Of a stretch of 15,948 bases of DNA, positions 1 through 15,948 are shown piece after piece. This DNA comes from a virus (Duplodnaviria > Heunggongvirae > Uroviricota > Caudoviricetes), in IMG/VR virus record IMGVR_UViG_2617271049_000005; one strand, given 5' to 3'. Numbering within the stretch: position 1 is the first letter of the stretch; the number at the start of each line of letters is the position of its first letter. A program made the position numbers and the translations under genes. Below the pieces are notes generated by a model that searched no databases, was not told the origin of the DNA, and saw only the letters and a list, made by a program, of their open reading frames with translations.

Positions 1-38
1 TTTAATCGTGAAGGTTTTCCCGGACTGACTGACGCCGG

Positions 39-893
39 TCAGCAGTTCGTCATCAGGGCGTCACCGCCACCACCGGTGGCCTTGCTGCGGCGCTGCTGGG
101 TCAGACTTTCGGTGTTGTCGAGACTGTTTTTCAGGCGGCTGAATGCCTGACTGGTTTTATCCGCCCTGTCAGTCACCTCCTGCTTAAGTGCGGAAAAGGC
201 GGTTTCCACCTCAGCGAGGCGCTGCTCAGTGGCGCTCAGTTTTTCCTGCACATGTTCAGCAACAGCGGTCACCGCTTCATGCACGTCATTCAGACGGGCG
301 TCATCGCTGGCCTGTTTGCGGCCAAAAATGGATTTCACCTTTTCGGTCAGGGCGGTGAACACGGTTTCAGGCAGGTCTTCAAATTCCAGCTCAACAGGCG
401 TTGCCACTGAAATCAGGTTTTCAGGGCTTAATTTGAAGCGGTTCAGGGGGTTGTGTTTTGCCGTGCGGCAGAATTCCAGGTATTCCGTACCGAGGCTTGC
501 CGGGTCATCGGTGACGGCCAGCCCCACCAGATAACATTTGCCGGTGTTGGCAAAGTTCGGCTGAATTTCCATTGAGGTGTAGACCTTCTGCGCGGCCTTG
601 TTCATCGCGATAAGGTCATCGGTCGGGGTGATTTTCGCAAACAGCGCCCATTTGCCTTTCAGCGCCGAATCATCGTCAATCTTTTCGGCCTTCAGTTCGA
701 CCACATCGCCATAACGTTTAAAAATACCGTCAGGCAGGATGCCGCGCAGATGTTCCAGGTTAATGCGGCAACCATAGACACGCGGGTCAAAGGTTTCCGC
801 CATTTCCTGAATATCCTGCGCACTGATGACACGCCCGTCACAGGTGTCACCCTCAACGCCGATACGAAAGAATTTTGAGACTTTTTTTGCCAT
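39..893 (-). CDS. O: capsid scaffolding protein gpO
   Basis: Minus-strand ORF 39..959. Starting at the internal ATG (893..891, protein MAKKVSKFFRIGVEGD...) gives 284 aa, the recalled size of P2 gpO. Divergent from P, as in P2. The longer 306-aa ORF start is probably an upstream alternative start artefact. Confidence 0.8.
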   Translation of the reverse strand: MAKKVSKFFRIGVEGDTCDGRVISAQDIQEMAETFDPRVYGCRINLEHLRGILPDGIFKRYGDVVELKAEKIDDDSALKGKWALFAKITPTDDLIAMNKAAQKVYTSMEIQPNFANTGKCYLVGLAVTDDPASLGTEYLEFCRTAKHNPLNRFKLSPENLISVATPVELEFEDLPETVFTALTEKVKSIFGRKQASDDARLNDVHEAVTAVAEHVQEKLSATEQRLAEVETAFSALKQEVTDRADKTSQAFSRLKNSLDNTESLTQQRRSKATGGGGDALMTNC

Positions 894-1066
894 TGTCAGG
901 AGTCCTGAATAGTGAGTAGAGGAGTCACATGTCGGCATCAGTTTCCCGACGATGCGCATCCTCCGCCATCAGTCCCGGATGGCTTATCACTGACACAACA
1001 GCACCTTAGCGAATCGCGGGGCGCGACTCAGTAGCCTTGCCGTGTATTCATCACGGCGAGGTATTC
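894..1066. promoter_or_regulatory. divergent late promoter region between O and P
   Basis: 173-bp gap between divergently transcribed O and P, where P2 places its Ogr-dependent late promoters. I found no clean TGT-N12-ACA Ogr site by eye, so this is positional inference only. A CCGTG-N7-CACGG dyad lies at about 1040..1058. Confidence 0.3.
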
Positions 1067-2839
1067 ATGACCATCACCACAGACACCACTCTTTTACACG
1101 ACCCGCGTCGTCAGGCGGCGCTGCTGTACTGGCAGGGGTTTTCCGTGCCGCAGATTGCCGCCATGTTGCAGATGAAACGTCCGACGGTGCAGAGCTGGAA
1201 ACAGCGCGACGGCTGGGACAGCGTTGCCCCCATCAGCCGTGTCGAAATGAGTCTGGAAGCGCGACTGACCCAGCTCATCATCAAACCGCAGAAAACCGGT
1301 GGTGACTTCAAGGAAATTGACCTGCTGGGACGCCAGATTGAACGACTGGCACGGGTAAACCGTTACAGTCAGACCGGCAACGAGGCAGACCTTAATCCGA
1401 ACGTCGCTAACCGCAACAAAGGCGGGCGTCGCAAACCGAAAAAGAATTTTTTCAGTGACGAGGCCATCGAAAAGCTGGAGCAGATTTTCTTTGAGCAGTC
1501 TTTCGACTATCAGTTGCACTGGTATCGCGCCGGGCTTGAGCACCGCATCCGCGATATCCTGAAATCCCGCCAGATTGGCGCGACGTTTTATTTTTCCCGC
1601 GAGGCGCTGCTGCGCGCCCTGAAAACCGGTCATAACCAGATTTTTCTGTCGGCCAGTAAAACGCAGGCGTATGTGTTCCGCGAATACATCATCGCCTTTG
1701 CCCGGCTGGTTGACGTTGACCTGACCGGTGACCCGATTGTCCTGGGCAATAACGGTGCAAAACTGATTTTTCTCGGCACCAACTCCAACACCGCGCAGAG
1801 CCATAACGGCGACCTGTACGTCGACGAGATTTTCTGGATCCCGAATTTTCAGGTACTGCGTAAGGTGGCATCAGGTATGGCCTCACAGAGTCACCTGCGT
1901 TCGACCTATTTCTCCACCCCGTCCACGCTGGCGCACGACGCCTACCCGTTCTGGTCGGGTGAACTGTTCAACCGGGGACGCGCCAGCGCCGCCGAACGCG
2001 TGGAAATCGACGTCAGTCATAACGCCCTTGCCGGTGGGCTTCTCTGTGCGGACGGCCAGTGGCGACAGATTGTCACCATTGAGGACGCCCTGAAAGGTGG
2101 CTGCACGCTGTTCGACATTGAGCAGCTCAAACGCGAAAACAGCGCCGACGATTTTAAAAACCTGTTCATGTGTGAATTTGTTGACGACAAGGCGTCGGTG
2201 TTCCCGTTCGAGGAGCTGCAACGCTGCATGGTCGACACGCTGGAAGAATGGGAAGACTATGCGCCGTTTGCCGCGAATCCGTTCGGCTCCCGCCCGGTAT
2301 GGATTGGTTACGACCCGTCACACCGTGGCGACAGTGCCGGATGCGTGGTGCTGGCACCGCCGGTGGTGGCCGGTGGCAAATTCAGAATACTTGAGCGTCA
2401 CCAGTGGAAAGGCATGGACTTTGCCACTCAGGCGGAATCCATCCGCAAACTCACCGAAAAATACAACGTCGAATACATCGGTATTGATGCCACCGGCCTC
2501 GGTGTCGGCGTGTTCCAGCTCGTGCGCTCGTTCTATCCCGCCGCGCGCGACATCCGCTACACGCCGGAAATGAAAACCGCAATGGTGCTCAAGGCAAAAG
2601 ACGTCATCCGCCGTGGCTGTCTGGAATATGACGTCAGCGCCACCGACATCACCAGCTCGTTTATGGCTATCCGCAAGACCATAACCAGCAGCGGACGCAG
2701 CGCCACCTATGAGGCCAGCCGCAGCGAGGAAGCCAGCCACGCCGACCTCGCCTGGGCGACCATGCACGCCCTGTTAAATGAGCCACTCACCGCCGGTATC
2801 AGCACCCCGCTGACATCCACCATTCTGGAGTTTTACTGA
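1067..2839 (+). CDS. P: terminase ATPase (large) subunit gpP
   Basis: ORF 1037..2839. The ATG at 1067 (MTITTDTTLL...) is preceded by GAGGT at about 6 nt and gives 590 aa, the recalled size of P2 gpP. Its stop overlaps the Q start (TGATG). Confidence 0.85.
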   Translation: MTITTDTTLLHDPRRQAALLYWQGFSVPQIAAMLQMKRPTVQSWKQRDGWDSVAPISRVEMSLEARLTQLIIKPQKTGGDFKEIDLLGRQIERLARVNRYSQTGNEADLNPNVANRNKGGRRKPKKNFFSDEAIEKLEQIFFEQSFDYQLHWYRAGLEHRIRDILKSRQIGATFYFSREALLRALKTGHNQIFLSASKTQAYVFREYIIAFARLVDVDLTGDPIVLGNNGAKLIFLGTNSNTAQSHNGDLYVDEIFWIPNFQVLRKVASGMASQSHLRSTYFSTPSTLAHDAYPFWSGELFNRGRASAAERVEIDVSHNALAGGLLCADGQWRQIVTIEDALKGGCTLFDIEQLKRENSADDFKNLFMCEFVDDKASVFPFEELQRCMVDTLEEWEDYAPFAANPFGSRPVWIGYDPSHRGDSAGCVVLAPPVVAGGKFRILERHQWKGMDFATQAESIRKLTEKYNVEYIGIDATGLGVGVFQLVRSFYPAARDIRYTPEMKTAMVLKAKDVIRRGCLEYDVSATDITSSFMAIRKTITSSGRSATYEASRSEEASHADLAWATMHALLNEPLTAGISTPLTSTILEFY

Positions 2840-3876
2840 TGAGCAAGAAAAAAGGGAAAACACCGCAACCTGCGGCAAAAAAAATGACCGCCAGCGCCCC
2901 GAAAATGGAGGCATTCACCTTTGGTGAGCCGGTGCCGGTACTCGACCGCCGTGACATTCTGGATTACGTCGAGTGCATCAGTAACGGCAGATGGTATGAG
3001 CCGCCGGTCAGCTTTACCGGTCTGGCGAAAAGCCTGCGTGCTGCCGTGCATCACAGCTCGCCGATTTACGTCAAACGCAATATTCTGGCCTCGACATTTA
3101 TCCCGCATCCGTGGCTTTCCCAGCAGGATTTCAGCCGCTTTGTGCTGGATTTTCTGGTGTTCGGTAATGCGTTTCTGGAAAAGCGTTACAGCACCACCGG
3201 TAAGGTCATCAGACTGGAAACCTCACCGGCAAAATATACCCGCCGTGGCGTGGAGGAGGATGTTTACTGGTGGGTGCCGTCCTTCAACGAGCCGACAGCC
3301 TTCACGCCCGGCTCCGTGTTTCACCTGCTGGAGCCGGATATTAATCAGGAGCTGTACGGCCTGCCGGAATATCTCAGCGCCCTTAACTCTGCCTGGCTGA
3401 ATGAGTCGGCCACGCTGTTCCGCCGCAAGTATTACGAAAATGGCGCACATGCCGGATACATCATGTACGTCACCGATGCCGTGCAGGATCGCAACGATAT
3501 CGAAATGCTTCGCGAAAACATGGTTAAGTCGAAAGGCCGCAATAACTTTAAAAATCTGTTTCTCTATGCCCCGCAGGGGAAAGCCGACGGCATTAAAATT
3601 ATCCCGCTCAGTGAAGTGGCGACGAAGGACGATTTTTTTAATATCAAAAAAGCCAGCGCCGCAGACCTGCTGGACGCGCACCGCATCCCCTTTCAGTTGA
3701 TGGGCGGCAAGCCGGAGAACGTCGGGTCGCTGGGTGATATTGAGAAAGTGGCAAAGGTCTTTGTCCGCAATGAGCTTATCCNNNNNNNNNNACTGAACAT
3801 CGCCGCCTGCGGGCGGCTTTTTTACATCCCGTCATCACGCCCTCACACGCTCACAACCGCACAAAACACTCCTTAG
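2839..3876 (+). CDS. Q: portal protein gpQ (3' end uncertain because of N run)
   Basis: ORF 2839..3876, 345 aa including 4 X from the 10-nt N run at 3782..3791. Recalled P2 gpQ is about 344 aa. Translationally coupled to P. The frame after the N run cannot be verified; an alternative frame would stop at about 3794..3796. Confidence 0.7.
   Translation: MSKKKGKTPQPAAKKMTASAPKMEAFTFGEPVPVLDRRDILDYVECISNGRWYEPPVSFTGLAKSLRAAVHHSSPIYVKRNILASTFIPHPWLSQQDFSRFVLDFLVFGNAFLEKRYSTTGKVIRLETSPAKYTRRGVEEDVYWWVPSFNEPTAFTPGSVFHLLEPDINQELYGLPEYLSALNSAWLNESATLFRRKYYENGAHAGYIMYVTDAVQDRNDIEMLRENMVKSKGRNNFKNLFLYAPQGKADGIKIIPLSEVATKDDFFNIKKASAADLLDAHRIPFQLMGGKPENVGSLGDIEKVAKVFVRNELIXXXXLNIAACGRLFYIPSSRPHTLTTAQNTP
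3802..3823 (+). terminator. candidate intrinsic terminator (GC hairpin plus T6) near the 3' end of the Q-P operon
   Basis: GCCGCC (3802..3807), loop TGCG, GGCGGC (3812..3817), then TTTTTT (3818..3823). It lies inside the annotated Q reading frame downstream of the N run, so either the Q frame is mis-set by the gap or the hairpin sits in the last codons. Confidence 0.35.
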
Positions 3877-3965
3877 ACACACCAACGCCCCGACGCACAA
3901 TCTAAACGCCATCACGACGCGCTCAGACGCTGAAAAAATAAAATCAGCACCACCGCCAGCGCGCA

Positions 3966-3984
3966 GTGCTTTCCCCGCCTCGCC
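3966..3984. other. cos: cos site, 19-nt cohesive-end sequence
   Basis: GTGCTTTCCCCGCCTCGCC at 3966..3984 is the exact reverse complement of the P2/186 cohesive end as I recall it (GGCGAGGCGGGGAAAGCAC). Position between Q and old matches P2. Confidence 0.7.
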
Positions 3985-4178
3985 CGCCCGCTTCACGGGG
4001 CGGTTTTAATGCACCTTAATAAAACTAATGAGCCATCAGTATTTCCAGTCAAAAGCCAAGCCATATCACAGTTTCCCTTAATGCAATCTCATGCACCCTT
4101 GAATGCAACGACTATAAAATGTAAAAAAGCGTTTCGTATGAACTCATTGCATACAAATAGCACATTTAAGGAAAAATA

Positions 4179-5939
4179 ATGACTGTACGTCTTGCTTCAG
4201 TTTCAATTAGCAACTTTCGTTCTTGTAAGTCAACATCGGCTATTTTGCGCCCCTTCACTGCTTTAGTTGGTTATAATAACGCAGGAAAATCAAATATTAT
4301 CTTAGCAATTAAGTGGCTGTTAGATGGCTCTTTGATTTCAGAATCAGATGTGTACGATCCTACACACCCCGTATCCGTTGAAGGCGTTATTCAAGGTATA
4401 ACAGATGATACTCTGTCTTTGTTAACAGAAGAGAATCAACAAAAAATAGCTCCGTTTATAATTGACGGGACTCTTACCTTTGCAAGAAGACAGGAATTTA
4501 ATAAGGAAACAGGAAAAGCCAAAAAAAGTCTGGATGTATATGACGGTACCACGTGGAAGAAAAACCCTGGCGGCATAGATGGTGCAATCTCCAATATATT
4601 TCCGGAACCAATTCATATCCCTGCAATGTCTGACGCTGTCGAAGACTCAACAAAATGCAAAAACACGACCACAATAGGAAAGATACTTTCCGCAATTGTT
4701 TCTGAAATAAAACAAGAACACGAAGAAAAATTTTCAAAAAACATATCAGAAATAGGTAAATATCTTTCTCACAACGGTGAGAACAGATTAGAAAGCCTTA
4801 ATAAAATAGACTCAGGTGTAAATAAAAAAGTAAACCAATTTTTTCCTGACGTAAGTGTAAAGTTACACTTTCCCACACCGACATTAGATGAGATATTTAA
4901 ATCCGGCACTCTGAAAGTTTTTGAGTCTCGGGAAGATGAACCGGTAATGAGAGATATCAGCCGATTTGGTCACGGAACACAACGTTCCATTCAAATGGCA
5001 TTAATTCAATACCTGGCCGAAATAAAAAAAGAAAACAGCGAATCAAAAAAATCAAACACTTTGATTTTCATTGATGAACCTGAGTTATATTTACACCCTT
5101 CAGCCATTAATTCTGTCAGAGAATCACTTGTCACATTAAGTGAATCAGGGTATCAGGTTATAATATCAACTCACTCAGCCAGTATGCTTTCTGCAAAGCA
5201 TGCAGCAAATGCGATTCAGGTTTGTAAGGATTCTAATGGAACCATAGCAAGGAAGACTATATCTGAAAAAATCGAAGAATTATATAAATCTTCATCACCG
5301 CAATTGCACTCAGCATTCACGCTTTCTAATTCATCATACCTTTTATTTTCTGAAGAAGTTTTGCTTGTTGAAGGGAAAACAGAGACAAACGTTCTATATG
5401 CACTTTATAAAAAAATTAACGGACATGAACTCAACCCGAGTAAAATCTGCATTGTTGCCGTTGACGGTAAGGGTAGTTTATTTAAGATGTCACAAATCAT
5501 CAATGCCATCGGCATAAAAACAAGGATTCTAGCTGATTGTGATTTCTTATCAAATATTCTATTAACAGAGCATAAAGACTTACTTAGTACTGAATGTGAT
5601 AATCTATTGACTGCTTTGATTGAATCAATCAACTCAGGAGAGCTTAGTTTAAATACAAAAGTTACTACTTTTGAGTCATTCAAAAGCATTTCAAGCAAAG
5701 ACTTCATCAAAATATGTAACCATGAAAAAACACAAAAGCATATACATGAAATACATCAAAAATTGAAAGATAACGGAATCTATATATGGAAATCCGGTGA
5801 TATAGAGGCTGTTTATGGATTTGGTAAAAAACAAACTGAATGGGATAGTCTTTTAGATTGTTTATGTGATGAAAGCAAAGATGTTAGAGCAGTAATAAAA
5901 AAATATGATGAAATGGAAGATTTCATAAAATGGATTTAA
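4179..5939 (+). CDS. old: OLD-family ATP-dependent nuclease (ABC-type ATPase plus C-terminal TOPRIM); probable P2 Old
   Basis: 586 aa, the recalled size of P2 Old. Walker A GYNNAGKS near the N-terminus, signature-like GHGTQRS, Walker B LIFIDEPELYLHP, H-loop-like ISTHS, TOPRIM glutamate LLVEGKTE and DxD in ILADCDF. SD AAGGA 6 nt before ATG. Visibly AT-rich. Sits next to cos as old does in P2. Confidence 0.85.
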   Translation: MTVRLASVSISNFRSCKSTSAILRPFTALVGYNNAGKSNIILAIKWLLDGSLISESDVYDPTHPVSVEGVIQGITDDTLSLLTEENQQKIAPFIIDGTLTFARRQEFNKETGKAKKSLDVYDGTTWKKNPGGIDGAISNIFPEPIHIPAMSDAVEDSTKCKNTTTIGKILSAIVSEIKQEHEEKFSKNISEIGKYLSHNGENRLESLNKIDSGVNKKVNQFFPDVSVKLHFPTPTLDEIFKSGTLKVFESREDEPVMRDISRFGHGTQRSIQMALIQYLAEIKKENSESKKSNTLIFIDEPELYLHPSAINSVRESLVTLSESGYQVIISTHSASMLSAKHAANAIQVCKDSNGTIARKTISEKIEELYKSSSPQLHSAFTLSNSSYLLFSEEVLLVEGKTETNVLYALYKKINGHELNPSKICIVAVDGKGSLFKMSQIINAIGIKTRILADCDFLSNILLTEHKDLLSTECDNLLTALIESINSGELSLNTKVTTFESFKSISSKDFIKICNHEKTQKHIHEIHQKLKDNGIYIWKSGDIEAVYGFGKKQTEWDSLLDCLCDESKDVRAVIKKYDEMEDFIKWI

Positions 5940-6113
5940 CTTAATCTGATACTATTACAGCACAGTACTAAACCAATAGTGATAGGCTGTGCTTTACCCA
6001 AGGATGGTGATTTCAAAATCAGAATGTGCTATAAGTACGTCAATCTAGTAACCTAAACACACAAACAAATCAATCATTAAGATTTATAATTCTGGAATAT
6101 AAAAGGTGTTGAT

Positions 6114-6875
6114 ATGAAGAACATGGATATTGTGAAAGCTGTAAAAGATGGAATGAAAAAGTCAGCCGACGCAACTTATTTAATGGATTTCAGTTCTGGT
6201 GCAAAAATAAACACTGAATATGTAGCTACCGTATCTATAGGTCTATCGTTGTTAGAAATAAAATCTTTTCGCCATGGTGATTACAAAGTTATATTTGAGT
6301 ACCATACAAATAAATTCATTAATGCAACAGTTCCTTTATCGAAACGGTCTGACCCCCAAAAAATATTCTCAAAAAAAACTGTCAGAAAAAACACAAACAC
6401 AACAAGATCAGGCAGAATTGATATTGCCATATTGGACAGCAGACCATTTTTCGACATTCCAATATGTGCAATAGAAGTTAAAGGAAATGCCCCCTGTAAA
6501 AGTCTTTTATTTTCTGACATAAGAAGAAATCTTGAATACTTTAAACACACAGGCCCTACAGGAAATTCAAGTCTTGGCCTAGCATTAAACTGTTCATTCC
6601 ATTCATACAATGATTCAACTAAAAAAAATTACTGCACTACAATCCACCATAAGGAAGACATGATAAGGAAATTAAAAAACAAATATAAAAAATACATATC
6701 CGAATTAAATGAAGAAATTCCAGACGATATATCTGTTACAATTGATGTTTTTACAGCAGCAGAGCATTTACTATCTCCTGATGCTGACCAATATGAATAC
6801 GAATCACATATAGATGACTTACATTTGACGCTTGGCGTTATGGTTATATTCGAACGAAAATCGATACTCAATTGA
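6114..6875 (+). CDS. tin: Tin-position cargo protein with PD-(D/E)xK-like motif; probable P2 Tin
   Basis: 253 aa, about 29 kDa, which fits my recollection of P2 Tin. Very AT-rich. SD AGGTG 5 nt before ATG and a TATAAT at 6085..6090. Lies between old and orf91/A as tin does in P2. Motif RIDIAILD...ICAIEVKG (D103/D108, E121-x-K123). Identity as Tin is by synteny and size only. Confidence 0.55.
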   Translation: MKNMDIVKAVKDGMKKSADATYLMDFSSGAKINTEYVATVSIGLSLLEIKSFRHGDYKVIFEYHTNKFINATVPLSKRSDPQKIFSKKTVRKNTNTTRSGRIDIAILDSRPFFDIPICAIEVKGNAPCKSLLFSDIRRNLEYFKHTGPTGNSSLGLALNCSFHSYNDSTKKNYCTTIHHKEDMIRKLKNKYKKYISELNEEIPDDISVTIDVFTAAEHLLSPDADQYEYESHIDDLHLTLGVMVIFERKSILN

Positions 6876-6913
6876 TATCATTTGTGGCTTAGAATAATTT
6901 GCTTATTTACAAT

Positions 6914-7240
6914 TTAAAGCAAATATATTGCCACCGTTCTTCGCCTTAGATTTATAAAAAATGTGGAGGATACTGCCAGCTTGACAGTCAGCGGCAGTAT
7001 CTCACCTAGTATTCTGTGCAGCAAGACATAATCTTCCAGCCAGTCTGACAGGTCAGTAACATCTGTTATCCGGGCTTCAACCTTTCGCCCCGTAAACACA
7101 CCCTGCACCCATTCATGCAAAATCAACGTGTCCCCGCGCTCATAATTACGATCTTTTTTCCGAAACTCTGCGCGTTTCTTTCCTTCCAGTACAAGGTCGA
7201 AATATTTTGCGTGCAGCTTTACCTCGTGAATTTTTGCCAT
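6914..7240 (-). CDS. ASCH-like small protein in the P2 orf91 position, translationally coupled to A
   Basis: ATG at 7240..7238 overlaps the A stop (TGATG on the minus strand) and gives 108 aa (MAKIHEVKLHAKYFDLVLEGKKRAEFRKKD...). Contains the ASCH-type GxKxxExR signature (GKKRAEFR). The longer 120-aa ORF start lies inside A. Confidence 0.6.
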   Translation of the reverse strand: MAKIHEVKLHAKYFDLVLEGKKRAEFRKKDRNYERGDTLILHEWVQGVFTGRKVEARITDVTDLSDWLEDYVLLHRILGEILPLTVKLAVSSTFFINLRRRTVAIYLL

Positions 7241-9525
7241 CATGTCCACTCCATTACTGTTGAGAATCCCGGCCACTCATCAGCGACCGGATACGTGAAT
7301 TTTTTCCCGTCATAATTTACGGTTGCTCCACGCGCCAGCGCCTCAAGTTCCCATCGCTGAGGCCTGATACCGTTCTGAGCAAGGTCAACGCGGATACGGG
7401 TGATCTGCAATCGTTCAGACCTGGTCAGTCTGGCAGATGGTGCAATTTCATGCGGTTTTAACGGGCTTCCGTTTCTTTGCTGACGGTTTGGCGTTCTCAT
7501 GTCGTATTTTAATGCGCCCCTGAGCGCCCTCACGACCTCCGGTTCATTCCATTCAATAACACCGTCATCAACCAGATTAAGCACTGCTGCGGCGTGCTCA
7601 GAAGGTGTGGGAGCCGGTAACGAAGTATCACCACCGGTGAGCTTTCCACAGTTATTGACAGGACTCCGAGGCGCGGCGATGCCGCTTTTTAAAGTCAGAG
7701 GCTCAACGACCGGAACTTTCGGCACAATGCGCCAGTCCGTCGTTCTGGTGATATGAATATGACGCGCGCCGAGATGCGGCGCGTAAATGCCGACCACTCT
7801 CTCGACTTCTTCCTCGTACTCGTTAACTTCATCCGACGGACTACGGGCGACCCTGACAGTCTGACAATCGCGCGGGACATTTGCCCCACCCTGCGCGCTG
7901 ATATACAACGCAAAATCACCACTGTCTGCGGCGGCGCGTGCAGCCTCGACGCGCTCGTCAAACTCATCAGCAATGCTGACGCCGCGAGGCAATTTGCGTA
8001 GTTCACGGTAAGCCCCCATTGTCGGCAGACCAACCGTTTTAAATTGTGGGATGCGCCACGTTGACGCCCATGCGGTAACAGCCGCAGCAGTGTCTTTCAG
8101 CGGTCTGCCGGTATCGTTATCGAGCTGACCATCCAGTGCATAGCCATCGATGTTTTTTGAGATGTATTTCGCGATATACCCCGCAGCACCGCCCTGGTTA
8201 AGGTGTTTTGCCTGAAAACGGTTTCGCGCGGCTCCTCTTTCGTCGCCATCCTCTTTGAGCGCATAGCGACGCATGATTTCGATAATCTGGTTACGCTGGC
8301 GTGGATGACAAAAAAGCATCATATGCCAGTGCGGCGTTCCGTCGTGGTGTGGCTCGACGACACGCAAACCGTAGACCTGTAAATCATTATCCTTGAATGC
8401 CGTGCGCATCAGGCTCCAGATACGGCAGAGATAACGCTGCGCATCCTTTGGATTAAATGCCTCATCGTTCCAGCCGTGATTAAGCTGAACGGTTTTACTT
8501 TCGCCTTTTCCGACCTGACGTGTCGGGTGATACTTTGACGGCGCGGTCAGCGTGATAAACATCCCCAAATCACCCTCTGCGGCGGCGTAACGCTCAATAC
8601 CGGCAATGGTGTTCATCAGCTCCATCCGGCGAATTTCAGGATTAGAAATACTGCCCATCACCTTACTGATAAGGTCGATGCGCTCGCCGGTTTCCCTGTT
8701 TTCAAGGTCACACGATTTAAGAAATTCCAGATTTGCCTGGCGGCGTGCACGCACATCACGAATGGCATGTTTACTGGCATAAGGAGAACGGTCTTTATTC
8801 ACCTCCCCGACAGCAATCAGTAACGCCTCATGCCAGCGCATACGCTGGCCTTTGAGCTGATGAGTCCACCACTCATCGTTAAACAGACGGGCAATGGCAG
8901 AATATGCCTGCCTCGTGGTCATCTGTCCTTTACGGTATTTTTTCCAGTAAAGCGGGGAAATATTGAAAGCACGTGCAGCGCCAGCAACATGACCATAGAG
9001 GTGAGCCTGCGCCTCATCCGTAAACAGCGATTCTTTTTCGCCATGTGCATCCACCCAGGCATCGCTGAGTTCCTCATACATCATGAAAAGCTGCGATGAG
9101 ATACGGGCGGCAAACTTTTTCAGCTCCTTGTCATTCATTCCAGGCAGGCGCGCATAGTGGTCACGCTCTGCCAGAAACAGCAACGACGCGTCGGTGTTCA
9201 TTTCATGGCGCTGATTCACGCGCTCAATGCGCGGCCATAAACGACGCTGAAAAGTGGATGTGAGGAAATAAAACCCGTGCACCGGGCTTTTATTGCGCCG
9301 GATGTAGTCATAGCGTGAAGTAAACAGCGAACGCAAAAAGTAAGGCAGGCGGTTAATCGTGGATAAAACACCTTGCACCTGACGCATCTCGTCACGTGTA
9401 AGGGGTCTTTCGCGCCCGACGGCCTCGCGTGGCGCGTTCCATGCATAAGCACCGGTAAACATCTTACCGGTGCCTGCGGCAAATGCTGACGGAGGGACAA
9501 AACGCCCGGAGGCTTTAACGGCCAT
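7240..9525 (-). CDS. A: replication initiation endonuclease gpA (rolling-circle initiator)
   Basis: ORF 7240..9567. The internal ATG at 9525 (MAVKASGRFVPP...) gives 761 aa, the recalled size of P2 gpA. Largest early-operon gene, upstream of the tin/old cargo as in P2. Confidence 0.85.
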   Translation of the reverse strand: MAVKASGRFVPPSAFAAGTGKMFTGAYAWNAPREAVGRERPLTRDEMRQVQGVLSTINRLPYFLRSLFTSRYDYIRRNKSPVHGFYFLTSTFQRRLWPRIERVNQRHEMNTDASLLFLAERDHYARLPGMNDKELKKFAARISSQLFMMYEELSDAWVDAHGEKESLFTDEAQAHLYGHVAGAARAFNISPLYWKKYRKGQMTTRQAYSAIARLFNDEWWTHQLKGQRMRWHEALLIAVGEVNKDRSPYASKHAIRDVRARRQANLEFLKSCDLENRETGERIDLISKVMGSISNPEIRRMELMNTIAGIERYAAAEGDLGMFITLTAPSKYHPTRQVGKGESKTVQLNHGWNDEAFNPKDAQRYLCRIWSLMRTAFKDNDLQVYGLRVVEPHHDGTPHWHMMLFCHPRQRNQIIEIMRRYALKEDGDERGAARNRFQAKHLNQGGAAGYIAKYISKNIDGYALDGQLDNDTGRPLKDTAAAVTAWASTWRIPQFKTVGLPTMGAYRELRKLPRGVSIADEFDERVEAARAAADSGDFALYISAQGGANVPRDCQTVRVARSPSDEVNEYEEEVERVVGIYAPHLGARHIHITRTTDWRIVPKVPVVEPLTLKSGIAAPRSPVNNCGKLTGGDTSLPAPTPSEHAAAVLNLVDDGVIEWNEPEVVRALRGALKYDMRTPNRQQRNGSPLKPHEIAPSARLTRSERLQITRIRVDLAQNGIRPQRWELEALARGATVNYDGKKFTYPVADEWPGFSTVMEWT

Positions 9526-9790
9526 ATGAGCCAAAAGCCTCTGAACAACGCTTGCTGAGTTGCTCAACCTGCACGTTTAAATCAGCAAAAGACTTTGCGC
9601 TTCCGGTCAGAATATCGTGATGCATCAGGCCTGAAACGAGCTGGCTTAATTTCGGGTAATAACCAACCACCGCCAGCCATTCCTGACCGGCGTTTTTACC
9701 GCTTTCCGCTCTCTTTTTCTCGTGGAGAATAAACTGAAAGCTGTCACTGGTAACGACATAACGTTCGCCAATTTCAATACGAATACTCAT
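9515..9790 (-). CDS. small early-operon protein (P2 orf83 position)
   Basis: 91-aa ORF whose ATG overlaps the orf82 stop (ATGA) and whose 3' end overlaps the A start by about 11 nt. Assigned by synteny. Confidence 0.5.
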   Translation of the reverse strand: MSIRIEIGERYVVTSDSFQFILHEKKRAESGKNAGQEWLAVVGYYPKLSQLVSGLMHHDILTGSAKSFADLNVQVEQLSKRCSEAFGSYGR

Positions 9791-10011
9791 GCCGTTCTCC
9801 GGTAATGTTTGTTTTTTGCTTCAAAGACTGACTGACAGGAAACACAACGCGTGGCTGACGGGTAAGCCGCACGACGGGCAGCAGGTATTGGCGCGTCACA
9901 CTCTTCGCAAACCAGCGCAGAAGCACCGCAATGTTTTACCCTTGCCGCGTTAATCTGACGCTCCAGTAATTCAGCCTGTTGTTCCTGAATAAAATCTACG
10001 TTGTCCGGCAT
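9787..10011 (-). CDS. C4 zinc-finger protein, TraR/DksA-like (P2 orf82 position)
   Basis: 74 aa with CxxC...CxxC (VCEECDAPIP...TRCVSCQSV). AAGGAA SD-like sequence upstream of the ATG at 10011..10009. Confidence 0.65.
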   Translation of the reverse strand: MPDNVDFIQEQQAELLERQINAARVKHCGASALVCEECDAPIPAARRAAYPSATRCVSCQSVFEAKNKHYRRTA

Positions 10012-10084
10012 TACCAGTTCCTTTTGTCGTTCAGTTTTTTAAATTCATCAGCGCAATAGCTGGCGATTTCTGTCGTTAATTTCG

Positions 10085-10321
10085 TCAGTTCATCCACGGA
10101 GGAAATTTGCTTGTGAAATACAGCGCGTTTAACAAGTAAATTGACCACATCAGACNNNNNNNNNNGTTTAATTCACTCTGATAAATCGCGATAACAGATT
10201 CAGTTATTTCGCGTTTTTCTTTATCAAGACCAAGTTGAATAAGAGACAAATCGCCATTTTTCATAACGGCGATTTTTAAGGCGTTATTCAGTAATACAAC
10301 TGAACGAGAACAGGACATCAA
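10085..10321 (-). CDS. small early-operon protein (P2 orf81 position); interrupted by N run
   Basis: 78-aa ORF with ATG overlapping the orf80 stop. Contains the N run at 10156..10165, so length and frame downstream of the gap are uncertain. Confidence 0.4.
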
Positions 10322-12088: not shown

Positions 12089-13102
12089 ATGGCAATCAAA
12101 AAACTCGATGATGGTCGATATGAAGTGGACATCCGCCCTACTGGACGTAATGGAAAACGCATCCGTAGGAAGTTTGATAAGAAAAGCGAAGCTGTCGCTT
12201 TCGAGAAATACACGTTGTACAACCACCACAATAAAGAATGGCTATCAAAACCAACAGACAAGCGACGTCTGTCGGAGCTGACACAGATCTGGTGGGATTT
12301 AAAGGGTAAACACGAAGAGCATGGGAAATCTAATCTTGGAAAAATTGAAATCTTCACAAAAATAACGAATGACCCATGCGCATTTCAAATTACGAAATCG
12401 CTTATCAGCCAGTACTGCGCCACACGAAGAAGTCAGGGTATTAAACCTTCGAGTATCAATCGTGATTTAACATGTATTAGCGGCATGTTTACAGCCCTGA
12501 TTGAAGCGGAGTTATTCTTTGGTGAGCACCCTATCAGAGGGACAAAAAGGCTTAAGGAGGAAAAACCAGAAACAGGCTATCTAACACAGGAAGAAATTGC
12601 CTTACTGCTTGCAGCACTTGACGGCGACAATAAAAAGATTGCGATTCTTTGCCTGAGTACAGGAGCACGTTGGGGAGAAGCAGCTCGTTTGAAAGCAGAA
12701 AATATCATCCATAACCGCGTCACGTTTGTTAAAACGAAAACAAACAAACCACGCACCGTCCCGATCTCAGAGGCTGTTGCCAAAATGATCGCGGATAACA
12801 AACGAGGTTTTTTATTCCCTGATGCTGATTACCCTCGCTTCAGACGAACAATGAAAGCAATAAAACCGGATTTGCCAATGGGGCAAGCCACACATGCACT
12901 AAGGCACAGCTTTGCCACTCATTTCATGATTAATGGAGGAAGTATTATCACGCTACAACGGATACTAGGTCACACGCGGATTGAGCAAACTATGGTTTAC
13001 GCTCATTTTGCGCCAGAGTACCTTCAGGACGCCATTTCTCTTAATCCGCTAAGAGGTGGTACTGAGGCCGAGAGTGTCCACACAGTGTCCACAGTAGAGT
13101 AA
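12089..13102 (+). CDS. int: tyrosine integrase
   Basis: 337 aa, the recalled size of P2 Int. C-terminal catalytic region HALRHSFATHFMINGGSIITLQRILGHTRIEQTMVYAH with conserved R, H-x-x-R and Y. GGAGGG SD 8 nt before ATG. Adjacent to the att core. Confidence 0.9.
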   Translation: MAIKKLDDGRYEVDIRPTGRNGKRIRRKFDKKSEAVAFEKYTLYNHHNKEWLSKPTDKRRLSELTQIWWDLKGKHEEHGKSNLGKIEIFTKITNDPCAFQITKSLISQYCATRRSQGIKPSSINRDLTCISGMFTALIEAELFFGEHPIRGTKRLKEEKPETGYLTQEEIALLLAALDGDNKKIAILCLSTGARWGEAARLKAENIIHNRVTFVKTKTNKPRTVPISEAVAKMIADNKRGFLFPDADYPRFRRTMKAIKPDLPMGQATHALRHSFATHFMINGGSIITLQRILGHTRIEQTMVYAHFAPEYLQDAISLNPLRGGTEAESVHTVSTVE

Positions 13103-13182
13103 CGTTTAAGGGCTTTCAGTGGTAATTTATGCCGCTCAAACCCGCATTGTACCGTTGAAAGCCCCTACTGGTGACACCCTAA

Positions 13183-13209
13183 ATCTCCCTTACACGGGCT
13201 TATTTTTTA
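13183..13209. other. att: phage attachment core (prophage/host junction)
   Basis: AATCTCCCTTACACGGGCTTATTTTTT is the exact reverse complement of the 27-bp P2 att core as I recall it (AAAAAATAAGCCCGTGTAAGGGAGATT). It lies about 80 bp past the int stop, with host genes beyond. Confidence 0.65.
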
Positions 13210-13366
13210 TGCATAAGCCCTATCCCTGGTCACCGTCTTCCATTGACCACATCGATAGAATCCTCCTTCATAGCACGATGCCTTACACTTATCGGCATCG
13301 TGCTCCCACAGGTTCCGGCTACGCACAGCCAGAACGCGCATATTTGACGCTTACCAAAAAATATTC

Positions 13367-13684
13367 TCACTCTCCACATTTGAATGTCAGACGAGCGACG
13401 CCATGTAATCCTGCACCTTCTGTCTTCAGGTCAACTATCTGCATTTTTTTGCCCTGAGTAACACAGAAATGGGCTGCATCATTTTTTACTATATTTTCTG
13501 CACCAGATATTCTGCCCCTGGATAAAGAAGCTTCGGCTTCGGTGTAGTATTGGTTATCGAGTTTACGCTGAATATTACTTTTATATGCAAGGCCAAATTT
13601 ACCGATACTTGTCTCATCATTATGCACAGCACAACCAGACATAAGAAAAACACTAATTAATGATATAGCAGCTATCTTGTTCAC
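13367..13684 (-). CDS. yegR: small lipoprotein YegR (host)
   Basis: ORF 13367..13744. A GTG start at 13684 gives about 105 aa with a signal peptide and lipobox-like ...ISLISVFLMSGC. Sits next to yegS as in the E. coli chromosome. The ATG 5 codons upstream (110 aa) is an alternative. Confidence 0.55.
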   Translation of the reverse strand: MNKIAAISLISVFLMSGCAVHNDETSIGKFGLAYKSNIQRKLDNQYYTEAEASLSRGRISGAENIVKNDAAHFCVTQGKKMQIVDLKTEGAGLHGVARLTFKCGE

Positions 13685-14089
13685 CTCACCTTCCCCCATT
13701 AAATACCAACGACACTCTCTAGTGTTTAAATATAATAATGGCATGATTATTATAATTGAATAGGATTATAATAAATGTTCTGTACAACATTTCCTACATA
13801 AGTAGGAATTACGGACATGGAGGCCCTTCCGGGTAACTCTATGGGGGCTTTAATATATTATATTGAAGATGCCACTGTTTAGTTGAATATTAGGTATATG
13901 CTCTTTTTTGAAATTTATCGGTGGCTGCCGTTAGTATTCGCTGTCCCCATTGCAAGCTCCTGGTGGTAACCACTGAATCCTCCATACTTGAACTGACTTT
14001 TTATCCTCCGACTTTCATCCTGTTCTGACTCCACCTTTTCTTTTCTGCTCTACACTATCTACAGACCAATCATAAAGGCACATACGATC

Positions 14090-14989
14090 ATGGCAGAATT
14101 TCCCGCCAGCTTACTGATTCTTAATGGCAAAAGTACTGACAATTTACCATTGCGCGAAGCAATTATGCTGTTGCGTGAGGAAGGAATGACAATCCATGTG
14201 CGGGTCACCTGGGAGAAAGGCGATGCCGCACGATATGTAGAGGAGGCCCGGAAGTTGGGCGTCGCGACGGTGATTGCCGGTGGTGGCGATGGCACCATTA
14301 ATGAAGTTTCTACGGCGTTGATTCAGTGTGAGGGGGATGACATACCCACGCTGGGAATTTTGCCATTAGGAACCGCCAATGATTTTGCCACCAGTGTAGG
14401 GATTCCTGAGGCACTGGATAAGGCGCTGAAACTGGCAATTGCCGGTAACGCCATTGCGATAGATATGGCGCAGGTCAACAAACAAACCTGTTTTATTAAT
14501 ATGGCGACAGGCGGATTTGGGACGCGTATTACCACAGAAACGCCGGAAAAATTAAAAGCCGCGCTGGGTGGCGTCTCTTACATCATTCATGGCTTAATGC
14601 GCATGGATACTCTGCAACCGGACCGTTGTGAAATCCGCGGTGAAAACTTTCACTGGCAAGGTGACGCCCTGGTCATTGGTATTGGTAACGGGCGTCAGGC
14701 CGGTGGCGGTCAACAATTGTGCCCGAACGCGTTAATTAACGATGGCTTGCTGCAACTGCGCATTTTTACCGGCGATGAAATTCTTCCAGCTCTCGTATCA
14801 ACCTTAAAATCTGACGAAGATAACCCGAATATTATCGAAGGCGCTTCGTCGTGGTTTGATATACAAGCCCCACACGAAATCACTTTTAATCTTGATGGCG
14901 AACCGTTGAGTGGGCAAAACTTCCATATTGAAATACTTCCGGCGGCGTTGCGTTGTCGATTACCACCAGATTGTCCATTATTGCGCTAA
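14090..14989 (+). CDS. yegS: lipid kinase YegS (DAGK_cat family)
   Basis: 299 aa. N-terminus [15 protein letters not shown]... and the GGDGT motif ([13 protein letters not shown]) match E. coli YegS as recalled. Confidence 0.85.
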
Positions 14990-15027
14990 TCAAACTATTC
15001 TCTCTTGAACCAGGGAGAATCCGTAAT

Positions 15028-15061
15028 GCCGGATGCGGTGTAAACACCTTATCCGGCATAC
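15028..15061. repeat. REP (repetitive extragenic palindromic) element
   Basis: GCCGGATGCGGTGTAAACACCTTATCCGGCATAC closely resembles the E. coli REP consensus GCCGGATGCGGCGTGAACGCCTTATCCGGCCTAC. Lies between convergent yegS and gatR. Confidence 0.6.
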
Positions 15062-15070
15062 AGAACAATA

Positions 15071-15850
15071 CTACACCGTAATTAATTTTACCCGTGTCTT
15101 CTGCAATGCCAGTTTATCCACATCTGACACGGCATCATCGGTAATAATAATGTCAATTTTTTCGATTGGCAGTACCTGATTAAAACCGCGACGGTTAAAT
15201 TTCGATGAATCGAGAACGGCAATCACTTTATTAGCGGCGGTGACCATCGCCCCGCTAATCGAATAACCTTCATTAAAGGTCGTAATACCATTAACCGCAT
15301 CAATACCATCAGCACCGACAAACATTAAATCGGCATTAATATCCTGCAATGAACGCTCGGCAATGGAACCATGCATCGAGCGCGTTTTATGGCGGACCGT
15401 GCCACCGCAGACGACCAGAGTAATGTCTTTATTTTCGGAAAGGGCAAACGCTGCCGGGAGACTGTTGGTAATCACCGTGATATTTTTGGCGGTCATTAAT
15501 CCTTCGGCGATAAGCATTGTCGTACTTCCGCTGTCGAGAATAACGGTCATCCCTTCGTGGATCATTTTGACTGCCGCCTGCGCTATTCTGTTTTTTGGCG
15601 CGCTGGCGAGCTGAAATCGCTCTTTAAACCCGACTTCCTGGGTCTCGGTTTCACTATTACCGGACATTATTTTCGCCGCACCGCCATGAAAGCGCGTAAC
15701 CACACCTTTTTGTTCGAGAAAGCGCAAATCGGCACGGATTGTCGCTTCCGAGGCAGCAAATACTCCCGCCAGATCCTGAACAAGCACGGTTCCCTGTTCA
15801 TTCACTAATTGGATGATCTTATTCCTTCGCTCGAATGAATTCATCGTCAT
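15071..15850 (-). CDS. gatR: DeoR-family transcriptional repressor, galactitol operon repressor GatR-like (intact)
   Basis: 259 aa. N-terminal HTH (IIQLVNEQGTVLVQDLAGVFAASEATIRADLRFLEQKG) and DeoR C-terminal sugar-phosphate-binding domain. Adjacent to yegS as in E. coli. True start may be the second ATG (MNSFERR...). Confidence 0.75.
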   Translation of the reverse strand: MTMNSFERRNKIIQLVNEQGTVLVQDLAGVFAASEATIRADLRFLEQKGVVTRFHGGAAKIMSGNSETETQEVGFKERFQLASAPKNRIAQAAVKMIHEGMTVILDSGSTTMLIAEGLMTAKNITVITNSLPAAFALSENKDITLVVCGGTVRHKTRSMHGSIAERSLQDINADLMFVGADGIDAVNGITTFNEGYSISGAMVTAANKVIAVLDSSKFNRRGFNQVLPIEKIDIIITDDAVSDVDKLALQKTRVKLITV

Positions 15851-15948
15851 TTACCCATATTCAATTGTGGCTAGTGTAAACGAAGGGGGACCATTGGTGA
15901 ATGATCTGTTTTGCACAATACCGGGCCAGCATCTCGCTGGCCCGAGGT

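Follow-up and report, generated by a model that had tools for sequence, protein, structure and literature searches.

A reading frame beside cos in an Escherichia coli prophage is almost certainly the old gene of bacteriophage P2

Layout of the prophage around old

The stretch of DNA that we analysed, hereafter the window, is 15,948 nucleotides long and runs from the phage genes O, P and Q through a cohesive-end site, an intact reading frame, tin, the replication gene A and the integrase gene to host genes (Table 1). The intact reading frame lies between Q/cos and A and is followed by tin, which is the arrangement of the P2 old locus. Megablast against phage records and direct comparison both matched all 1761 of its 1761 nucleotides (100%) to positions 31620-33380 of AF063097.1. 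Its translation is identical to the P2 Old protein (AAD03309.1; NC_001895.1 is a second P2 record), and the matching P2 feature carries the text 'old: nonessential protein; lysogenic conversion; exonuclease; blocks growth of phage lambda'. Over the 2153 nt that begin with cos and end with codon 2 of tin (3966-6118), zero differences from the P2 reference were seen; this interval includes the 213 nt upstream of old back to cos, within which the old-tin transcript starts. The full-length nucleotide and amino acid comparison yielded no sequence evidence against identity with P2 old.

Table 1. Features of the window around old, with motifs and residues of the Old protein
Feature	Position (nt)	Strand	Remarks
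Gene O		-	Scaffold; left of cos
Gene P		+	Terminase; left of cos
Gene Q		+	Portal (Phage_portal); left of cos
cos	3966-3984	.	19-nt P2 cohesive-end sequence; matches AF063097.1 cosR and cosL; upstream edge of the accessory island
old-tin mRNA transcript starts	4133 and 4135	+	From AF063097.1 features 33426 and 33424; sequence identical
Shine-Dalgarno-like AAGGA	4168-4172	+	6 nt before ATG; read from the sequence
old CDS	4179-5939	+	586 aa plus stop; ATG at 4179, stop codon ends at 5939
Walker A / P-loop, GYNNAGKS	4269-4292	+	aa 31-38; K37 at nt 4287-4289
ABC signature-like, GHGTQRS	4968-4988	+	aa 264-270; aligns with the equivalent GajA segment (phmmer)
Walker B and D-loop, IDEPELYLHP	5070-5099	+	aa 298-307; Walker B D299 and E300, D-loop H306
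H-loop, STHS	5166-5177	+	aa 330-333; H332
TOPRIM core (Pfam OLD-like_TOPRIM)	5343-5543	+	aa 389-455
TOPRIM, LLVEGKTE	5361-5384	+	aa 395-402; E398, K400, E402
TOPRIM, DCD	5535-5543	+	aa 453-455; D453, D455
D541 and E543, second-metal ligands	5799-5807	+	Metal B; mutated in PMC7049728
K550	5826-5828	+	Mutated in PMC7049728
tin	6114-6875	+	P2 annotation; PADLOC Tin 3.7e-98; downstream of old, shared mRNA
orf91 (DUF3850/ASCH)	6914-7243	-	After tin
Gene A (Phage_GPA)	from 7240	-	Replication
orf83 to orf80, B, orf78, cox		-	After gene A
C		+	Before int
int	12089-13102	+
Attachment core			After int; P2 match ends at about 13209
yegR, yegS, DeoR/GlpR regulator			Host genes after the prophage

According to the P2 annotation, old would be a non-essential lysogenic-conversion gene, co-transcribed with tin from starts just inside cos. 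A scan of positions 3850-7300 for consensus promoters and terminators missed the annotated old promoter (5 promoter-like sites, compared to 12.2 in shuffled sequence), and the transcript starts were therefore taken from the P2 record. A 56-aa reading frame at 4009-4179 was considered as a partner of Old and rejected: it has no Pfam match, overlaps both annotated starts (4133 and 4135) and is missing from the P2 annotation.

The preliminary description of this DNA had presented the gene as standing alone. This is correct in that no helicase partner adjoins it, but per the P2 record its mRNA is shared with tin. Tin differs from the reference P2 protein by 2 residues (N2K and R27S), and a Pfam search found no domain in it. 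The P2 record annotates tin as blocking the growth of T-even phages; tin is a separate, independent exclusion gene and no partner of Old.

Two runs of ten N were observed in the window. The first, at 3782-3791, stands for about 87 nt at the 3' end of Q, and the second, at 10156-10165, stands for 5 nt inside orf81. Beyond int, a literature search yielded no name for the attachment site of P2 adjoining yegR; at the yegR-adjoining position E. coli K-12 presumably carries a P2 remnant (ogrK/yegZ).

With 34% GC, old and tin together stand out as an AT-rich island between flanks with 53-57% GC. This composition is consistent with the Q/cos-A interval being a hotspot for exchangeable defence cargo, as described for P2-like phages, in which 1,650 gene arrangements were reported for 18,150 occurrences of the interval (PMC9122126). 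Among 5426 complete E. coli genomes only 17 carry old, while a match to 80% or more of the window was found in 54; the rarity of the gene, although P2-like prophages are common, fits the published view of a hotspot into which defence genes are swapped. Divergence from reference P2 is uneven along the prophage: it is zero from cos to old, about 0.4-0.7% from tin to A, where gpA has 5 amino acid changes, and reaches 1.7% in the O-P-Q arm (98.3% identity to the reference). This unevenness suggests that the prophage may have a mosaic history. An identical old allele was found in at least 11 of the 17 old-carrying complete genomes. It is conceivable, but on balance doubtful, that recombination at the cos hotspot very recently spread the old cassette among P2-like prophages, as opposed to the cassette having diverged together with the backbone. 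Even if such a spread had occurred, the gene itself would still be an ordinary P2 old.

Domain architecture and family assignment

The six ATPase and TOPRIM motifs that had been listed in the preliminary description each occur exactly once in the 586-aa reading frame, and a motif search gave all of them definable positions (Table 1). The N-terminal part has the ABC-type ATPase expected of the OLD family, with Walker A, Walker B, D-loop and H-loop, and the C-terminal part has the expected TOPRIM domain with the acidic ligands of two metals, arranged as E...E, DxD and a distal D/E pair. We infer that GHGTQRS is the signature of the ATPase; no mutant of this motif was found in the published Old work that we searched. 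All residues of Old that are named in the literature (23 of 23) are present with the same numbering. They comprise the catalytic residues K37, D299, H306, H332, E398, K400, E402, D453, D455, D541, E543 and K550 and the tetramer-interface residues Y32, L170, I177, F185, I192, L196, F221, F222, L229, F231 and Y304. Old is predicted to be a single chain, in which an ABC-type ATPase with an inserted dimerisation region is fused to a C-terminal TOPRIM nuclease.

Profile searches led to the same family. The PADLOC 'Old' profile was matched over positions 2-578 of 578 (1.3e-214, 712.3 bits), and in Pfam the protein matched AAA_15 (6.9e-28, 98.8 bits for a cut-off of 32.1), AAA_21 (8.8e-20) and, over profile positions 1-67 of 67, OLD-like_TOPRIM (1.2e-17, 64.6 bits for a cut-off of 23.2). 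These matches are far beyond chance. A significant OLD match and a TOPRIM domain, on which the preliminary description had staked its proposal of an OLD-family protein, were hence both found with sequence profiles. Among PDB sequences the best match was 6p74 (1.3e-10), and several GajA chains matched at about 2e-9. In NCBIfam no family reached its cut-off, the best being retron_eff_Eco8 with 57 bits for a cut-off of 250, which means no more than that NCBIfam lacks a dedicated model for P2 Old.

Similarity to other OLD families raises the question whether the gene is one component of a larger system whose partner was overlooked, namely the GajA of a Gabija system (Class 2), a retron OLD (Class 3) or a split pair of the PARIS type. 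Weaker profile matches do point in these directions: GajA models were matched with E-values down to 7.9e-32, AriA at 1.9e-33 in the ATPase part only, and the retron Eco8 effector at 1.1e-15, again far below its cut-off. However, none of these other families exceeds 115 bits (the best GajA model reaches 108.6), compared to 712 bits for Old, and Pfam matches and annotation revealed neither a helicase gene, UvrD-like or GajB-like, nor a reverse transcriptase gene nor a separate nuclease gene near old in either flank. A gathering-threshold scan of the whole window with Rfam returned 0 matches, retron RNA included, and a tRNA scan of the whole window found no tRNA gene, which excludes a retron non-coding RNA or a rescue tRNA next to old. 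Gabija was rejected for the lack of a GajB-like gene and the difference in score, a retron OLD for the lack of a reverse transcriptase and of retron RNA and for its score in NCBIfam, and PARIS on the ground that a single chain carries both ATPase and TOPRIM. The gene neighbourhood already refutes a multi-component system, to which we give practically no credence.

Old is encoded here as a single gene, with no UvrD/PcrA/Rep-like helicase adjoining it and outside any retron cassette, and the lack of an adjoining helicase, reverse transcriptase or retron RNA gives the locus a Class 1 layout. This agrees with the assignment of P2 Old to Class 1 (PMC7049728, PMC10568477). The preliminary description had proposed an intact Class 1 ATPase-TOPRIM protein, carried by a prophage and expected to behave like P2 Old; it turned out to be P2 Old itself, with full identity in nucleotides and in amino acids.

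Known since 1969-1970, Old of P2 is the archetype of its family. We conclude that the reading frame at 4179-5939 is almost certainly bacteriophage P2 old, residing in a P2 prophage of an E. coli chromosome, and that the tRNase mechanism described for P2 Old in the literature would apply to it. Both the OLD family and its Class 1 have this gene as their founding, or type, member; it is not a mere relative. It is an intact reading frame and an already known, well-studied anti-phage defence gene; its presence is no new finding. The value of the identification lies in precise annotation and in the prediction of how the host strain behaves. In RefSeq the gene is labelled no more specifically than 'ATP-dependent nuclease' or 'AAA family ATPase', and no NCBIfam model reaches its cut-off, so the name 'P2 Old' is more informative.

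Target and mode of action of Old

The target and the structure of Old were worked out in 2025-2026 (PMC12445682; bioRxiv 10.64898/2026.07.10.737580). Earlier, the substitutions K37A, D299A, H306A, H332A, E398A, D453A, D455A and K550A had been reported to abolish the killing of recBC(ts) cells (PMC7049728), as does each of the substitutions at E402, D541 and E543 (Schiltz et al. 2020, PMC7049728). The Walker A and TOPRIM mutants that the preliminary description had proposed to construct were therefore already published for the identical protein (PMC7049728).

In the classical explanation, Old is an ATP-stimulated DNA exonuclease and endonuclease in vivo, and DNA degradation would account for both the exclusion of lambda and the death of recBC cells. 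In vitro, MBP-Old was reported to act as a 5'-3' DNA exonuclease, and DNA is nicked and degraded by Ts OLD, a Class 1 homologue (PMC7049728, PMC10568477). The protein also has the same two-metal TOPRIM site as relatives that cleave DNA, such as GajA, and a weak, ATP-independent activity on single-stranded DNA is still detected (PMC12445682). However, when lambda Gam or T7 Gp5.9 elicits Old toxicity (Govande et al. 2025, PMC12445682), genomic DNA and plasmids stay intact, while tRNA-Thr(UGU) is depleted and loses its anticodon arm (PMC12445682). Purified Old left plasmid DNA, lambda DNA and the GajA substrate DNA uncut; it cleaved the tRNA at two points, needing no ATP for the cut after nucleotide 28 but ATP hydrolysis for the one after nucleotide 40 (PMC12445682). 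Tested as mutants, E402A abolished tRNA cleavage, H332A cut the tRNA at site 1 only and was non-toxic in combination with E402A, and a phage tRNA-Thr rescued cells intoxicated by Old (PMC12445682). An independent study likewise found no nuclease activity on double-stranded DNA and reported that Old cleaves a small set of tRNAs (bioRxiv 10.64898/2026.07.10.737580). We consider DNA degradation in vivo a very unlikely explanation of the phenotypes. The term 'OLD-family nuclease', under which the gene had been described, is borne out by the family matches, but the nuclease now has to be understood as a tRNA endonuclease in vivo (PMC12445682; bioRxiv 10.64898/2026.07.10.737580).

Cryo-EM at 3.1 A showed an auto-inhibited tetramer of Old, with the TOPRIM residues E398, K400, E402, D453 and D455 in the catalytic pocket of the model, and mutants of the dimer interface were hyperactive (bioRxiv 10.64898/2026.07.10.737580). 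Aberrant DNA, in cells deficient in RecBCD, and single-stranded DNA hairpins of the lambda origin were reported to activate the protein. This activation model, with its transition from tetramer to dimer and its origin hairpins, comes from a 2026 preprint whose authors call for further evidence (bioRxiv 10.64898/2026.07.10.737580).

Based on the literature for the identical protein, Old is most likely an abortive-infection tRNase gated by the sensing of DNA structure. At rest, Old would be held as an auto-inhibited tetramer. Loss of RecBCD function, whether through recB or recC mutation, lambda Gam or T7 Gp5.9, together with the accumulation of aberrant DNA, would trigger it; single-stranded hairpins at the origin of a replicating phage may act as a second trigger. 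The TOPRIM domain would then make two staggered cuts, dependent on ATP hydrolysis, in the anticodon stems of certain host tRNAs, chiefly tRNA-Thr(UGU). Removal of the anticodon arm would stop translation and kill or arrest the cell, so that the infection is aborted.

Exclusion of lambda and lethality in recBC hosts, both expected from the preliminary description, are documented for the identical gene and would be expected here as well. The phenotypes inferred for this prophage are those documented for old because the putative promoter stretch, from cos to the ATG, is also identical to P2. Identity with P2 Old predicts that the host excludes RecBCD-inhibiting phages, wild-type lambda among them, that it does not tolerate recB or recC knock-outs, and that it supports Spi- selection.

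These phenotypes would be absent if old, albeit intact, were silent or ineffective in this strain, owing to a defective prophage, a resident anti-OLD factor or a resistant host tRNA-Thr(UGU). The two N runs of the assembly, in Q and orf81, mean that the prophage as a whole may not be intact, and a phage-borne inhibitor, Oad2, as well as resistant tRNAs have been reported (bioRxiv 10.64898/2026.07.10.737580). The promoter and leader region, however, does not differ from that of P2, the lysogenic-conversion annotation and the gene's own transcript starts suggest independence from the lytic functions of the phage, and neither a known inhibitor nor a tRNA was found to be encoded in the window. A silent or ineffective old likewise appears to us very improbable.

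Comparison with known systems

Bacteriophage P2 Old itself shares every character examined: nucleotide and amino acid sequence, the upstream region to cos, tin downstream and the position between Q/cos and A. The difference from the P2 reference is that the gene resides here in a prophage of a natural or draft E. coli genome, the other arms of which are slightly diverged.

Thermus scotoductus OLD (6p74), the Class 1 OLD that is defined by its structure, has the same single-gene layout, with an ABC ATPase, a dimerisation insert and a TOPRIM domain. The two proteins are distant: the match is partial, covering Old residues 270-445, a segment that includes Walker B and extends over the first TOPRIM motif, with a further, weak stretch in the N-terminal part. 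The catalytic residues of Ts OLD guided the choice of the P2 Old mutants (PMC7049728). Ts OLD was reported to be a dimer that cleaves DNA in vitro and has no known phage target (PMC10568477), whereas P2 Old was reported to be a tetramer that acts on tRNA (bioRxiv 10.64898/2026.07.10.737580).

GajA (8sm3, 8j4t, 8wy5) resembles Old in its ATPase-TOPRIM fusion, its conserved acidic residues that bind metal and its apo-like closed TOPRIM channel. In contrast to Old, GajA requires the adjacent helicase GajB, carries a helical insert in its TOPRIM domain and nicks specific DNA sites in a reaction that is inhibited by ATP (PMC10568477).

PARIS (AriA/AriB) and the OLD protein of retron-Eco8 follow the same logic, in which an ABC ATPase serves as the sensor and TOPRIM as the effector. 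Retron OLDs differ in that they depend on a reverse transcriptase and msDNA. PARIS kills, like Old, by cleaving tRNA and is countered by phage tRNAs, but its ATPase and its nuclease are two proteins, whereas Old combines both in one chain.

Divergence from reference P2 and sequence gaps

The similarity of the prophage to reference P2 (AF063097.1) varied along the window. The arm carrying genes O, P and Q (window 2-3781) contained 65 mismatches in 3780 nt (1.7%), while the stretch from cos through old (3966-6118) showed 0 mismatches in 2153 nt and the following ~4 kb with tin, orf91 and A (6119-10155) had 18 substitutions. Because divergence from P2 differs between these three regions, the sequence suggests a mosaic or recombinant history near the hotspot at cos. 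At the protein level, Tin differed from its P2 counterpart by two residues (N2K and R27S), and gpA carried the changes M50V, T234A, V320L, H368R and N407H.

Two runs of undefined bases interrupt the prophage. Alignment to P2 indicated that exactly 10 N at 3782-3791 replace about 87 nt, corresponding to the last ~30 codons of the portal gene Q. The apparent end of the Q open reading frame at 3876 is therefore an artefact, the reading frame crossing the gap into the Q-cos spacer. The second run, also exactly 10 N (10156-10165), interrupts orf81 and replaces only 5 nt of P2 (AGGAG), which shifts every downstream conversion from P2 to window coordinates by +5. Since both runs share this fixed length, they suggest scaffold gaps or masked stretches.

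Prophage-host junction

The match to P2 stopped near 13209, where the attP core lies, with the junction at ~13182-13209 and host DNA from 13210 to 15948. In E. coli K-12, a P2 remnant occupies this same position. A literature search gave no name for the attachment site at the yegR junction.

The AT-rich island next to cos

Window 3985-6913, covering old and tin, forms an island of 34% GC (34.8% for old, 32.9% for tin) between flanks of 53-57% GC. Such an island is typical of horizontally acquired cargo at the cos-proximal hotspot of P2. In the prophage, the terminator-like hairpin bordering cos could insulate old against read-through from the P-Q operon.

Features located in the window
Feature	Position	Strand	Observation
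Terminator-like hairpin	3984-4003	+	CCGCCC...GGGCGG then TTTT; adjoins cos on the old side; unannotated in the P2 record
tin	6114-6875	+	PADLOC 'Tin' model, 3.7e-98
orf91 (P2)	6914-7243	-	DUF3850/ASCH domain, 1.1e-16
gpA, replication protein	7240-9525	-	5 residue differences vs reference P2
yegR (host)	13367-13684	-	Beyond prophage end
yegS (host)	14090-14989	+	Beyond prophage end
DeoR/GlpR regulator (host)	15071-15844	-	Beyond prophage end

Tin matched no family in Pfam or NCBIfam, the PADLOC model being the sole one to recognize it. Beside the island, orf91 is full length, whereas the equivalent gene in E. coli strain EC50, the closest genome, is annotated as a truncated pseudogene.
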